DNA from: Candidatus Giovannonibacteria bacterium RIFOXYD1_FULL_48_21
GTDB taxonomy: Bacteria; Patescibacteriota; Minisyncoccia; JACPKW01; UBA11713
Direction of reading: 5' to 3'
NCBI GenBank assembly: GCA_001778985.1
Contig: MFIU01000001.1
Location: forward strand, 190,934-254,933
Length of the DNA: 64,000 nucleotides
Position numbers and translations under genes: made by a program. The notes beneath the pieces were generated by a model that worked only from the letters and a program-made list of their open reading frames with translations, did not search any database and was not told the origin of the DNA. Of this stretch, positions 7,947 through 27,802 are shown piece after piece (the stretch's first letter is position 1; each line of letters opens with the position of its first letter).

Positions 7947-9119
7947 ATGAAAGACCGGGAAATAGAAAAATTAATTAAAGCGGAAGAGAAACGCCAGAAG
8001 CGGGTGATTAATTTAATTCCCTCGGAAAATTATGTTTCTCAAGACGTGCTTCGGGCGCTGGGCTCGGTGCTGAATAATAAATATTCCGAAGGGTATCCCG
8101 GGAAGCGTTATTACGGCGGAAATGTCATTATCGACAAAGTAGAAAACCTTTGCCGCAAGCGAGCTCTTAAACTTTTCAAATTAAAACCGGAGGAATGGCA
8201 CGTAAACGTGCAGCCGCTTTCGGGGAGCCCGGCGAATCTCGCGGTCTACGCGGCCTTGGTGCCGCTGGGCGGAAAAATCATGGGCTTGACGCTCTCCTCG
8301 GGCGGGCATCTTACCCACGGACAGAAAGGTTCTGTAACCGGAAAAATTTGGACGCAGGTGCCCTACGCGGTTGACCCCAAAACAGAGACGCTTGATTACG
8401 ATGCTCTCCAGAAACTCGCGATACAAGAAAAACCAAATATAGTCGTGGCTGGCTATACGGCTTACCCGCGATTTGTTGATTGGAAAAAATTCAAAGAGAT
8501 AGCAAATGCTTCCGGCGCCATACTTATGGTCGACATGTCTCATATGGCGGGGCTCATTGCCGGCGGAGTATATCCGAGTCCGTTTCCGTACGCGGATGTG
8601 GTGACTACCACAACGCATAAAACTCTCCGCGGCCCGCGCGCCGCGATTATTTTTGCGAAAAAGGACGCGCGAGAATTTGATAAAAAAATCGACAAAGCGA
8701 TTATCCCCGGGCTCCAGGGTGGGCCGCATGAAAACCAAATCGCGGCGGTCGCGGTTTGTCTCAAGGAAGCCATGAATCCCGCGTTTAAAAAGTATGTTAA
8801 GCAAATTATAAAAAACGCGAAAGTATTGGCACTGAGCTTGTCGAAGTGTGGCTGGCGGGTTATTTCGGGGGGCACGGATTCGCATCTGCTTCTGGTAGAC
8901 ACCTGGATGGACGGCAAGGGAATTTCAGGCAAGGATGCCGAAGCCGCTCTTGAAAAAGCCGATATTATCGTAAATAAAAATACGATTCCCGGAGACCAGC
9001 GAAGCCCGCTTGACCCATCCGGCATTCGCCTCGGCACCCCGGCCGTGACCACGCAAGGAATGAAAGAACGCGACATGAAAAAAATCGCCGAAAGAATTCA
9101 TAAGATTTTGTCGCGATGA
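7947..9119 (+). CDS. glyA: Serine hydroxymethyltransferase
   Basis: LIPSEN, YSEGYPGKRYYGG, TTTTHKTLRGPR; ATG 7947 preferred over TTG 7938. Confidence 0.97.
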   Translation: MKDREIEKLIKAEEKRQKRVINLIPSENYVSQDVLRALGSVLNNKYSEGYPGKRYYGGNVIIDKVENLCRKRALKLFKLKPEEWHVNVQPLSGSPANLAVYAALVPLGGKIMGLTLSSGGHLTHGQKGSVTGKIWTQVPYAVDPKTETLDYDALQKLAIQEKPNIVVAGYTAYPRFVDWKKFKEIANASGAILMVDMSHMAGLIAGGVYPSPFPYADVVTTTTHKTLRGPRAAIIFAKKDAREFDKKIDKAIIPGLQGGPHENQIAAVAVCLKEAMNPAFKKYVKQIIKNAKVLALSLSKCGWRVISGGTDSHLLLVDTWMDGKGISGKDAEAALEKADIIVNKNTIPGDQRSPLDPSGIRLGTPAVTTQGMKERDMKKIAERIHKILSR

Positions 9120-9964
9120 TTGTTGACGGCAAAGCGCTTGCGGAGAAAATAAAAGCCGAATTGAAAGCGGATGTTTCGAAGCTAAACAAAAAAATTCGAC
9201 TGGCGGTGGTTAAAATCAGCTCGGATGCCGCGACTGAAAAATTTTTGGAGCAGAAAAGGAAATTCGCAGAGGCGATTGGAGTGGATGTCAGAATTTATGA
9301 AATACATCCGGATATCTCCACGAATAAACTCCGCGAGAAAGTTTCAGAGATTGTGCATATCAAAGAAAACAACGGGGTCATAGTTCAGCTTCCTTTGCCG
9401 CCGCAGATAAACACGCAATATATTCTGGACGCGATAGTTCCGGAAAAAGACCCGGACATGCTTTCTTCTAAAAGCTGGGGAGCGTTTGCGGCCGGATCCG
9501 CCCGCCGGCGGACAAAGATTCTGCCGCCGGTTGCGGGAGCGGTTAAAGCCGTATTTGATGAGCATAAAGTCGAGATTCGCGATAGAAACGCAGTAGTGAT
9601 AGGCGCCGGCCGCCTGGTGGGCAAGCCCCTCGCGACCTGGCTTTTGAACGCCGGGGCCACGGTTTCCGTGATTCACAGGGGCACCAAGAATCCGGAAGAA
9701 TATACTCGAAAAGCCGATATTATTATTTCCGGAGTTGGAAAACCGAAATTGATAACTCCTGTGATGGTGAAAGACGGGGTGGTGGCGATTGATTGCGGCA
9801 CTTCGGAGTCCCCGCCTGGGGCGGGGCAGGCCTCCAGGCAGGTGGTCGGAGATATTGACCCTGGAGTTTCAGAGAAAGCTTCTCTTTTCGCGCCGGTTCC
9901 GGGCGGGGTCGGCCCGGTTACGGTCGCGATGCTGTTTAAAAATCTAGTTGAGCTGTCAAAATGA
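9116..9964 (+). CDS. folD: Methylenetetrahydrofolate dehydrogenase/cyclohydrolase
   Basis: VQLPLP, EKDPD, VGKPLA, PVPGGVGPVTVAML. Confidence 0.95.
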   Translation: MIVDGKALAEKIKAELKADVSKLNKKIRLAVVKISSDAATEKFLEQKRKFAEAIGVDVRIYEIHPDISTNKLREKVSEIVHIKENNGVIVQLPLPPQINTQYILDAIVPEKDPDMLSSKSWGAFAAGSARRRTKILPPVAGAVKAVFDEHKVEIRDRNAVVIGAGRLVGKPLATWLLNAGATVSVIHRGTKNPEEYTRKADIIISGVGKPKLITPVMVKDGVVAIDCGTSESPPGAGQASRQVVGDIDPGVSEKASLFAPVPGGVGPVTVAMLFKNLVELSK

Positions 9965-10743: not shown

Positions 10744-10830
10744 TGGTGCCGCGGGAGGGGGTCGAACCCTCATGAGCTTTCGCTCGCAGGATTTTGAGTC
10801 CTGTGCGTCTGCCAGTTCCGCCACCGCGGC
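10744..10830 (-). tRNA. tRNA-Leu(CAA)
   Basis: GCCGCGG acceptor, anticodon arm CAGGA-CTCAAAA-TCCTG, long variable arm, GGTTCGACCC, encoded CCA. Confidence 0.96.
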
Positions 10831-10837
10831 ATATTAT

Positions 10838-11074
10838 TTATTTTAATTGATCTAGAAATTTTCTTCCTTGCCCACTTTTAAGAAATTTTTCTCTTTTGCG
10901 TGCTTCCTCGTATGAAGCACAATTTTCAACAAGTACAGTTTCAAATGTTGCGTACGGTTTCGTAGTCAAATTATATCCTTCGTTGTGCTGTTTTAATCTT
11001 CTCGCGAAATTATTGGTAATTCCTACATATCTGTAGTTGTGTTTCATACTTTTAATTACATATACATGCACCAT
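10838..11074 (-). CDS. Small GIY-YIG nuclease
   Basis: VYVI...YVGITNN..RRLKQHN.G...EARKREKFLKSGQGR. Confidence 0.92.
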   Translation of the reverse strand: MVHVYVIKSMKHNYRYVGITNNFARRLKQHNEGYNLTTKPYATFETVLVENCASYEEARKREKFLKSGQGRKFLDQLK

Positions 11075-11174
11075 AGGATTTTGAGCTTGCCCGCCTTAGG
11101 CGGGTCGTGCGCGGTCGCCAGAGGCGACTAAATCTGCCAGTTCCGCTTTACCCGCCAGAGGCGGGCACCGCGGC
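11075..11174 (-). pseudogene. Displaced 5' half of tRNA-Leu interrupted by three 19-nt hairpin insertions
   Basis: Removing 11086-11104, 11114-11132 and 11147-11165 leaves GCCGCGGTGGCGGAACTGGCAGACGCGCACGACTCAAAATCCT, 41/43 identical to the 5' half of the intact tRNA-Leu. Confidence 0.93.
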
Positions 11175-11212
11175 CCGTCTCGTCTCGCCTCGTCGAGACA
11201 AGCAATACCTCG

Positions 11213-11241
11213 AATTTAAAAGTTTTTTAGCTTATTGTCAA
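11213..11241 (-). promoter_or_regulatory. Putative sigma70 promoter for the tRNA-Leu/GIY-YIG unit
   Basis: TTGACA - 17 nt - TAAATT on the minus strand. Confidence 0.55.
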
Positions 11242-11270
11242 TTTGATTAATTTTTTATACGATTTTATAT

Positions 11271-12170
11271 ATGGCGGAATTTGGAGAACCCAGAAGAAGT
11301 TCAAGTATTTTCTTTATCGAACTTGACCGCATCAAGCCCAATTCCATGCAGCCCCGCACCGAATTCGATGAGGGGCGGCTTTCTGAACTCGCGGAATCAA
11401 TCCGGCAGTATGGGGTGCTGCAGCCGCTGGTGGTTCTCCGCCAGGAGAAGGCCACACCCACCGGCGTTGTCGCTGAATATGAGCTTATTGCCGGCGAGCG
11501 CCGTTTGCGCGCGGCCCGCTTAGCGGGCCTTCGCGAGGTGCCGGTTATCATCCGGCAGGAGTCCGCGGACAAAATTAAACTTGAGCTCGCCTTGGTGGAA
11601 AACGTCCAGCGGGAGGATTTAAACGTGGTTGACCGCGCCCAGGCCTTCCGCCGGTTGAATGAAGAATTCGGTCTTGGTCACAGGGATATCGGCGCGAGAA
11701 TCGGAAAATCGCGCGAATACGTTTCAAACTCGCTGCGTCTTTTGTCCCTTCCTTCCGAACTCCAGGCCTCGTTGCGGGACGGACGCATAACCGAAAGCCA
11801 CGCCCGGCTGTTGCTGACTTTGCAGTCTCAACCCCAGGAACAAAAAGCGCTCATGGACGATATTATTTTCAGAGGGCTTAACGTTCGCGAAACCGAACGC
11901 CTCACCAAAGAGCTTACCGCCGGAGTTAAAAAAGAAATCAAAAATCTTGACCCGGAAACAAAGACTTTGGAAGAAAAGCTCGCCGCGGCCCTGGGGGCTC
12001 GCGTCTATATTTCAAAAAATGAATCAGGCGGCCGGGTTTCGATTGAATTTTTTTCGCCGGAAGAATTAAGGGCTTTTGTGGAACGCTTCGAGCCCGAACC
12101 TATGAGCCCAGAAGGACAAGTGGTTTTGGCCGAGGTTCGGCCGGAAGACTTGGAAGAGTTTACGATCTGA
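11271..12170 (+). CDS. parB: ParB/Spo0J partition protein
   Basis: QPRTEFD, GVLQPL, LIAGERRLRAA, ENVQREDL, HTH region. Confidence 0.95.
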   Translation: MAEFGEPRRSSSIFFIELDRIKPNSMQPRTEFDEGRLSELAESIRQYGVLQPLVVLRQEKATPTGVVAEYELIAGERRLRAARLAGLREVPVIIRQESADKIKLELALVENVQREDLNVVDRAQAFRRLNEEFGLGHRDIGARIGKSREYVSNSLRLLSLPSELQASLRDGRITESHARLLLTLQSQPQEQKALMDDIIFRGLNVRETERLTKELTAGVKKEIKNLDPETKTLEEKLAAALGARVYISKNESGGRVSIEFFSPEELRAFVERFEPEPMSPEGQVVLAEVRPEDLEEFTI

Positions 12171-26977: not shown

Positions 26978-27235
26978 TTACTCTTTTAACGAGTCTGTTA
27001 ATCTCGATAATAAATGTCTTTTTTCGGTATATTTTTCTTTCAATTCTTTTTCTCTTTTGAAAGCATCATATTTACTTGTAAATGCTTCGTAATATATAAG
27101 CTTCCAAGGCCTCCCCCTTTTAGTTGAACTTACGCCTCCACTGTTATGTTCTACTAATCTTTTTTTGAGATCACCGGTACAACCTATATATTTTGTACCT
27201 GTGATACTGCTTTTAAGGAGATAGACGTAATGCAT
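26978..27235 (-). CDS. Small GIY-YIG nuclease
   Basis: YVYLLKS..KYIGCTGDLKKRLVEHNSG..WKLIYYEAF..AFKREKELK; stop is 1 nt before the tRNA. Confidence 0.92.
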   Translation of the reverse strand: MHYVYLLKSSITGTKYIGCTGDLKKRLVEHNSGGVSSTKRGRPWKLIYYEAFTSKYDAFKREKELKEKYTEKRHLLSRLTDSLKE

Positions 27236-27238
27236 TTT

Positions 27239-27293
27239 ATTCAACCACTCCCTCGGCCGTAGCCCGGCCTACGGGCGAGGCTGCCACCCCACC
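27239..27293 (-). pseudogene. Displaced 5' end of a tRNA-Ser interrupted by a 31-nt hairpin
   Basis: Removing 27251-27281 leaves GGTGGGGTGGCAGAGTGGTTGAAT, versus GGTAGGGTGGCCGAGTGGTTTAAG in the intact tRNA. Confidence 0.82.
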
Positions 27294-27294
27294 T

Positions 27295-27531
27295 TCATCG
27301 GCCGTATTTTTTTAGGCGGTAAGCGTCCGAGTGGTCTATCAGGTTTTCTTTATCGGCTCTGTCTATTATTTTGTTTAGCTCTTTTTTTGACAAACCAGAT
27401 GGTCGCAAAGTTTCTGGCTTGGCCATCTTAAAAAGCTCTTTCTTTTCTTTTGGGCCTAACTTCAATCCCTTGACTAAACCCTTAAGTTCTTTACTTGATT
27501 TGATATGACTTTTTTCGTCAAACAGTCCCAT
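27295..27531 (-). CDS. Small basic hypothetical protein
   Basis: 78-aa Lys-rich ORF. Confidence 0.65.
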   Translation of the reverse strand: MGLFDEKSHIKSSKELKGLVKGLKLGPKEKKELFKMAKPETLRPSGLSKKELNKIIDRADKENLIDHSDAYRLKKYGR

Positions 27532-27544
27532 GTTGTTATTTTAG

Positions 27545-27802
27545 TTATTTCTTAATAAAAGGCAATCGGATTAATTTCTTAAAGGCCTCTCCAGATTTAT
27601 AAGATTTGATCTCGATCTCTCTTTTTCTGGCAGACGTTTTGTCGGTCATGAATTCTTTATAAATTAGTTGCCACTGGCGGTAAGCTTTTGTGGAACGAAC
27701 CTTCCCAGCATTGTGAGACCTTAGTCTTTTATCCAGGTTTCCCGTGTATCCAATGTAGTGGCGCTGGAAATTTATACTTTTTAGGATATAGACCTCATAC
27801 AT
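27545..27802 (-). CDS. Small GIY-YIG nuclease
   Basis: VYILKS..HYIGYTGNLDKRLRSHNAG.VRSTKAYR.W...ARKREIEIKSYKSG. Confidence 0.92.
   Translation of the reverse strand: MYEVYILKSINFQRHYIGYTGNLDKRLRSHNAGKVRSTKAYRQWQLIYKEFMTDKTSARKREIEIKSYKSGEAFKKLIRLPFIKK

Follow-up and report, generated by a model that had tools for sequence, protein, structure and literature searches.

Three 19-nt hairpins interrupt a dead tRNA-Leu fragment in front of a small GIY-YIG nuclease gene in Candidatus Giovannonibacteria bacterium RIFOXYD1_FULL_48_21. We give a slightly better than even chance to the explanation that they are copies of a REP-like micro-element that inserts on its own and is probably bound and nicked as single-stranded DNA (ssDNA) by small GIY-YIG nucleases. 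For binding and cutting, this joint explanation has a precedent in the nuclease SsnA and its NTS repeat (PMC11893778). Positions below refer to the window (the whole stretch of 64,000 nt that was analysed), unless they are given with a genome and contig handle, G000 being the host genome.

A tRNA-Leu fragment split by three 19-nt units

On the minus strand the locus reads, in order, a promoter-like site, a hairpin of another type, the split tRNA fragment, the GIY-YIG gene and an intact tRNA. The fragment (11075..11174, minus strand) is a dead 5' part (nt 1-43) of tRNA-Leu(CAA) that ends at the ATG of the nuclease gene; this stand-alone gene (10838..11074, minus strand; PF01541, E 7e-15) encodes 78 a.a., and the intact tRNA-Leu(CAA) (10744..10830, minus strand) is the sole tRNA with that anticodon in the assembly. 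The promoter-like site, upstream of all three, is a sigma-70-like match (TTGACA-17-TAAATT, 11213..11241, minus strand), a consensus match only, and three promoter-type matches were found where 1.4 are expected. Between it and the fragment lies the fourth hairpin (11182..11202, plus strand; 6-bp stem, 6-nt loop, then AAG), whose boundaries are not fixed; it is preceded by a 5-nt repeat (11177-11202 for the whole) and is missing at the same place in locus L002. In an Rfam search of the locus the tRNA alone was significant. The host genome has 714 kb and 48% GC, against 32.5% GC for the nuclease gene. Among named organisms, the closest relatives of the locus belong to Patescibacteria (e.g. Ca. 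Giovannonibacteria), and the cassette of tRNA fragment, 78-a.a. GIY-YIG gene and intact tRNA is present in several lineages of that phylum. In two genomes of the same family (G006 and G002) the tRNA adjoins parB without a cassette, so the cassette comes and goes.

A sequence-only reading of this DNA had claimed three 19-nt insertions, all of which we recover with the same positions, sequences and strands. Unit 1 (11086..11104, minus strand, CAAG tail) sits after tRNA nt 32, at the junction of anticodon stem and loop (site E); unit 2 (11114..11132, plus strand, GTCGCC stem and TAAA tail) after nt 23, at the junction of D-loop and D-stem (site D); and unit 3 (11147..11165, minus strand, TAAA tail) after nt 9, at the foot of the D-stem (site B). 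Unit 2 is thus oriented opposite to the other two, and the TCT loop of unit 3 is the reverse complement of the usual AGA. Each has a 6-bp stem, a 3-nt loop and a 4-nt unpaired tail (-6.3 to -6.7 kcal/mol, folded as DNA). The boundary of unit 1 can slide by 1 nt and those of units 2 and 3 by 0 nt, with no flanking bases doubled, as the earlier claim of insertion without target duplication had it. The stems had also been said to covary, and they do so across 65 units, which have 15 loop types (60 units have a loop ending in A) and tails that are TAAA or CAAG in 61 cases (43 and 18, respectively); the tail pattern, first written as YARR, is corrected to YAAR.

Removal of the units leaves 43 nt, which align with nt 1-43 of the intact tRNA-Leu(CAA) except for two mismatches, both within the 9 nt between units 1 and 2. 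Since this 9-nt stretch recurs in related cassettes, the neighbouring tRNA is not strictly the pre-insertion sequence that it had been taken for: it restores the 43 nt, but the middle stretch is that of another allele, and the boundary of unit 1 keeps its 1-nt slide.

The 714-kb genome contains 33 perfect GCC-N3-GGC hairpins with a stem of at least 6 bp, where order-3 Markov simulations give ∼7.5; with loops of 3-5 nt allowed around the GCC/GGC core, it contains 82 where the simulations give ∼21.5 (a roughly fourfold excess). On the strength of this excess a chance origin of the units is dismissed. A YAAR tail follows 6 of 66 hairpin ends in the host genome (1.4 expected), three of the six being units 1-3 themselves. 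An assembly artefact is likewise dismissed, because two runs that are not flagged as potential sources (X7 and X14) have contigs identical to the assembly over 10806-11700 (0 differences, 0 gaps). No 19-nt deletion is listed in the contigs of four runs, which drop rare variants.

Occupancy of the insertion sites

We compared 31 distinct loci of the nuclease clade, counting identical duplicates once and stripping units automatically (left out were L027, where the frame is broken at the match and there is no upstream tRNA fragment, and the partial matches L043-L045, L083, L085 and L086). Site D is filled upstream in 29 of the 31 loci, in 25 of them by the exact reversed 19-mer with a GTCGCC or ATCGCC stem and in four by units with altered loops; of the two exceptions, L067 has the unit in a downstream remnant only and L032, a Bacteroidota locus, has none. 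The site after nt 9, home of unit 3, is filled in 8/31 loci, and that after nt 32, home of unit 1, in 7/31 (many fragments end before this site). Elsewhere, the site after nt 15 is filled in 16/31 loci and that after nt 6 in 5/31. The nuclease gene tree, a short one with weak resolution, requires 7 changes for site C and 4 for site E. The nearest relative of the nuclease, L021 (support 95/93), has sites D and E filled in common with our locus; its site-E unit differs from unit 1 in loop and tail. Judged by occupancy, unit 2 is a conserved part of the nuclease cassette, a fixed motif, and units 1 and 3 fill optional sites. A reading of the three units as equivalent recent insertions is accordingly not supported, with unit 2 fixed in 29/31 loci and a site-E unit also present in L021.

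Likely insertion of single units

Boundaries were also determined without guidance, by removing 0-5 extra bases on each side of a hairpin and matching the junction to 134 intact tRNAs. Among 52 sites resolved in this way, mostly from one clade and hence non-independent, 34 hairpins are exactly 19 nt, nine are 19 or 20 nt, five are 20-22 nt and four are 30-nt doublets of tail-less 15-nt hairpins. Units occur in tandem (L025, L059), and in L070 one unit has, precisely where its loop meets its 3' arm, a second unit nested in reverse orientation. Both orientations and different stems occur at the sites after nt 6 and nt 15 (L032, L067). In one pair of loci, the remnant behind the new intact tRNA of L056 equals the intact allele of L048 at 69/69 nt once the units at sites D and E are removed; the two share 294/294 upstream bases and differ in their downstream flanks (L056 is a 2.6-kb metagenome contig). 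A search for further copies, as the sequence-only reading had suggested, did find them: the strict unit pattern has 175 matches in 78 of the 201 genomes of the class, with up to 13 copies per genome, and its reversed control has one match. From the tandem and nested copies, the sites filled both ways round and the two units in an otherwise identical tRNA allele, we conclude that single 19-nt units likely insert independently. The proposal that such a unit is itself mobile therefore stands to the extent that the unit behaves as an insertion module.

The insertion sites in tRNAs lie outside helix interiors in 11 of 12 cases (p 0.006), a post hoc rule, with six of these 12 assigned by eye; restricted to the six Leu sites, the figure is 5/6 (p 0.15). 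A narrower rule, of landing at the junction of 5' arm and loop in the unit's own orientation, fits sites D and E, the nested unit and a tRNA-Gly site, and was rejected as sites A and C are filled both ways. The idea that the real unit is a 15-nt hairpin and YAAR its target site is set aside as a lead: the T-loop remnants in L088, L108, L115, L129 and L130 fit it, but these cases of target-derived YAAR are biased by the search pattern, which demanded the YAAR that the T-loop has in its consensus. Not all hairpin doublets in the host genome abut YAAR.

The 78-a.a. nuclease and its linked hairpin

Residues Y5, Y16, R26, H30 and E62 of the nuclease, which we take to be of catalytic type, are invariant in its 41 relatives. 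By analogy with SsnA mutants (PMC11893778), the two tyrosines and the glutamate are predicted to have catalytic-type roles. The predicted structure (pLDDT 95.5) comprises just the GIY-YIG domain and comes closest to BH0048, HIGLE and Slx1. The best sequence-profile match is 1ZG2 (E 2e-9); fold matches have TM-scores of 0.58-0.70 by query and E above 0.001, so that Foldseek with the predicted model gave none at E 0.001 or better, and in an NCBIfam search all families scored below their own cut-off. In the L048/L056 pair the nuclease genes are identical up to a conserved FLKSG motif and then diverge (gene nt 203-234); read from these alignments, a crossover inside the nuclease gene is what brought in a new C-terminus and a new tRNA.

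Among 64 GIY-YIG proteins, the 30 that have the unit-2 motif form one clade, with one change on the tree against a shuffled mean of 21.5 (none of 500 shuffles reached so low a number). Another 16 proteins, found at Leu, Gln and Glu tRNAs, form a second clade, which is marked by a different hairpin, in the T-loop; the hairpin-type labels were chosen after the data had been seen, and plain linkage can yield the same pattern. The unit-2 junction pattern, searched in 201 genomes, matched in eight, of which four are chance matches without a hairpin and four are true hairpins, each of these followed by this nuclease and tRNA-Leu(CAA).

The earlier reading had named the nuclease as a candidate mobiliser or binder of the units and proposed to compare their proximity to GIY-YIG and to RAYT genes. 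The local linkage is strong: in the host genome, a GIY-YIG gene is no more than 300 nt away from 5 of the 82 hairpins (0.9 expected; three of the five are units 1-3), and a Y1 gene from none of them (0.39 expected), with one hairpin within 1000 nt of a Y1 gene (1.03 expected). Dispersed copies do not repeat this picture. We sampled 60 YCCGCC-type sites among the 150 matches listed, and within ∼500 nt of them found a GIY-YIG gene at one, a Y1 gene at one and an intact tRNA at 11; of the 49 sites without an intact tRNA nearby, some hold tRNA remnants. Nor do unit counts per genome favor the nuclease, correlating with GIY-YIG counts (which include UvrC and unrelated subfamilies) at rho 0.23 and with Y1 counts at rho 0.25 (partial 0.21); as a test between the two enzymes this correlation was rejected as non-discriminating, related genomes being non-independent and assemblies incomplete. 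Among 77 unit-bearing genomes, 5 have no GIY-YIG match and 23 have no Y1 match.

As far as such linkage can tell, unit 2 is tied to this nuclease clade, and for the dispersed YCCGCC-type units no such tie to an enzyme has emerged so far. The small nuclease probably recognizes unit 2, and the role of binder of the middle unit is better supported for it than that of mobiliser of all units.

Comparison with known systems

The 19-nt unit resembles REP repeats and their RAYT transposases in being a short hairpin with a tetranucleotide at one foot, in having dispersed copies (at low copy number) and in forming doublets; a tetranucleotide 5' of the hairpin foot is the layout of IS200/IS605 and REP elements (PMC6006769). 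It differs in its tag, which is YAAR (YTTR on the other strand) and not GTAG/GTGG or CGTC; in lacking a flanked Y1/HUH transposase gene, the linked gene being a GIY-YIG nuclease; and in its length, which is below the 20-40 or 21-65 nt given in the literature (PMC3733652, PMC6006769). Repeats of the CGTC type are stated to have no dedicated transposase (PMC3733652). As with IS200/IS605 elements, there is no target-site duplication at the units. IS200/IS605 elements insert 3' of a conserved tetra- or pentanucleotide of the target, which stays outside the element, but in tRNA-Leu the tetranucleotide belongs to the unit itself and no motif is common to the flanks. MITEs have terminal inverted repeats and target-site duplications, whereas the unit has an asymmetric tail and duplicates nothing.

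SsnA binds a hairpin repeat (NTS) in ssDNA and cuts beside it (PMC11893778, Chenal et al. 2025). That paper shows cleavage, not insertion, and its authors remark on an IS-like layout; its main text has no mention of 'tRNA'. Our cassette shares with the Ssn family (cd10448) a small GIY-YIG gene with a single domain, a short hairpin repeat beside it that has further copies across the genome, an orientation given to this repeat by non-palindromic bases at the stem, and a gene flanked by its own hairpin (the unit-2 motif is found beside 30/30 clade members). In contrast to the NTS/SRM consensus, the unit has neither the CGTC tag nor the ATTCCC/GGGAAT stem, with 19 nt and a YAAR tail instead, and the cassette here sits in tRNA genes. 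In our tree Ssn is represented by two NTS-flanked stand-ins, which share 31-33% identity with the 78-a.a. nuclease and fall outside the tRNA-Leu clade. A search with the NTS motif for Ssn reference proteins met a GIY-YIG gene at 2 of 80 sites among the matches listed. The cassette works most like the Ssn nuclease/hairpin pairs, with a nuclease that appears to belong to a different clade.

The best profile and fold matches of the protein are Slx1-type GIY-YIG nucleases and UPF0213 proteins (PDB 1ZG2, 7WME and 6SEH), from which it differs in having 78 a.a., predicted to be the catalytic domain alone, and in being encoded in a mobile cassette and not as a repair gene. Free-standing GIY-YIG homing endonucleases such as SegB of phage T4 occur in phage tRNA clusters. 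With these our locus has in common a GIY-YIG gene among tRNA genes and a patchy distribution; the differences are the bacterial chromosome, the lack of a separate DNA-binding domain and the partial tRNA duplication with hairpin inserts. Among the mainly open-access literature searched (main texts), no description of the 19-nt unit or of the cassette was found. By these comparisons the unit is one that acts like a REP or SRM repeat, yet fails the REP tag, the RAYT linkage and the NTS consensus.

Other GIY-YIG/tRNA cassettes and hairpins

The host genome has 10 small GIY-YIG genes and one further match in a long frame; for eight of these a tRNA is found no more than ∼630 nt away, and the genes at tRNA-Glu, -Ser, -Tyr and -Trp also have a hairpin-split 5' fragment of their own tRNA upstream. 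Two of the small genes are found elsewhere in the window (27022-27300 and 27600-27800; G000:C1:217956 and 218535), the former between a hairpin-split 5' tRNA-Ser fragment and an intact tRNA-Ser(TGA). At G000:C2:59400-59960 a GIY-YIG gene and a new intact tRNA-Glu(CTC) separate the two parts of an older tRNA-Glu, and long hairpins are inserted at each junction. A tRNA-Tyr fragment at G000:C3:6520-6920, before a GIY-YIG gene and an intact tRNA, is broken by two 15-nt hairpins without tails, which form a 30-nt doublet; at G000:C3:4130-4520 a hairpin terminates a tRNA-Trp fragment upstream of another such gene and intact tRNA. A separate GIY-YIG clade (G000:C2:210480-210770, C2:123970-124290 and L031) lies inside inverted repeats CCCCGTTAGA...TCTAACGGG, distant from tRNAs; the same ends enclose tRNA-Pro(CGG) at G000:C1:72208-72281.

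Hairpins were also seen in other settings. A folD-like ORF of the window (9116-9964) contains two in-frame GCC-core hairpins (∼9495-9515 and 9810-9830), with boundaries not fixed against an orthologue. A 19-nt unit lies within the loop of a different palindrome near tRNA-Gly(CCC) (G000:C4:108250-108300), and two related loci of G046 (L100 and L101) have arrays of two or three head-to-tail hairpins with TAAG spacers. A Bacteroidota clade (L033-L041 and L074-L081) has the mirror order of intact tRNA, GIY-YIG gene and 3' tRNA fragment, with a longer hairpin in the T-loop of the fragment; the cassette is tandemly repeated in L036, L040 and L076.

Proposed mechanism and alternative explanations

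In the mechanism that we propose, the nuclease would bind hairpin and tail in ssDNA, at a replication fork or in incoming transforming DNA, as SsnA does on NTS, and would cut beside the hairpin. Host ligation or template switching could then install the 19-mer where other folded ssDNA is nicked, mostly in loops and stem junctions of tRNA genes and other hairpins. A cut beside unit 2 would expose ends homologous to the host tRNA-Leu gene; the cassette could thus recombine into that gene, kill the upstream copy and keep or supply an intact tRNA downstream. Homing through tRNA homology is in line with the 3' part of an old tRNA behind the new intact one in L024, L056, L058 and L067. Since GIY-YIG nucleases hydrolyse DNA and no strand-joining activity is known for them, host enzymes are needed for insertion. 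A supply of ssDNA would come from DNA uptake, for which Patescibacteria are described as competent (PMC12455944). We hold a more far-reaching version tentatively, as a possibility well short of even: the 19-nt hairpin-plus-tail might be a self-contained mobile element, among the smallest possible, with the 78-a.a. GIY-YIG nuclease, not a transposase, excising or copying it and host repair fitting it blunt and either way round into loops of folded ssDNA. The same enzyme would use a fixed copy to home its own gene into tRNA genes, and each nuclease clade would have its own hairpin, so that the clades together would form a natural collection of ssDNA-specific nuclease/site pairs beyond the Ssn family.

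Plain linkage may account for the match between nuclease clade and hairpin type, which counts against our best explanation, and another enzyme could do the moving. HUH chemistry can join strands, and the host genome has four Y1_Tnp genes, which are RAYT-like (∼217-231 a.a.; G000:C2:104091, C2:98478, C1:231411, at ∼40480 of the window, and C2:154242). The units might then be REP-type elements moved in trans by a Y1 (HUH, RAYT-like) transposase, with the cassette simply collecting copies and the tRNA fragment serving as neutral foldable DNA. On the other strand the unit reads YTTR and then hairpin, the layout of IS200/IS605 and REP (PMC6006769), and unit counts correlate slightly with Y1 counts, as given above. 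We regard this reading as unlikely, though to be taken seriously: each of the four Y1 genes lies between its own short imperfect palindromes or inverted repeats, different for each gene and unrelated to the units, none of the 82 hairpins lies within 300 nt of a Y1 gene, nearly a third of the unit-bearing genomes have no Y1 match, the tag is neither GTAG nor CGTC, and unit 2 follows a GIY-YIG clade.

It is also conceivable, at a clearly low probability, that units never move singly and are inherited parts of the cassette, spread by homologous recombination or short gene conversion. With one stem type at one site in 29/31 loci, inheritance or gene conversion surely explains unit 2, and perhaps unit 1; the sites shared with L021, the downstream D units of L056 and L058, identical to their upstream D units, and the crossover within the nuclease gene point the same way. 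What this process cannot give is a nested unit, the same site filled both ways round, or copies in unrelated intergenic DNA (the 49 of 60 sampled sites without an intact tRNA nearby), and unit 1 and the same-site unit of L021 differ in loop and tail. Perfect short hairpins at breaks are a typical product of snap-back synthesis, and the units could in principle be repair scars: instead of being copied from an element, each would have arisen afresh through fold-back synthesis where a nuclease had cut. The loops do vary, as do the outer bases of the stems, and tail-less doublets exist at 4/52 sites; but length, GCC/GGC core and YAAR tail are constant at sites with unrelated flanks, neither arm of units 1-3 copies flanking DNA, and a genome with the same unit at unrelated sites speaks for copying. 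This origin is already disfavored and very improbable.

Implications

The locus bears on how REP-like micro-repeats arise and spread in genomes without a linked RAYT gene. From dead tRNA copies the empty sites can be read to the exact base, and nuclease and candidate site are very small, which opens the way to a direct bench test. If the micro-element explanation is true, GIY-YIG nucleases would be mobilisers of short DNA, and the broken tRNA copies common in genomes of Patescibacteria would have a single cause. There would then be a second group of ssDNA-specific nucleases beside Ssn, usable as tools.
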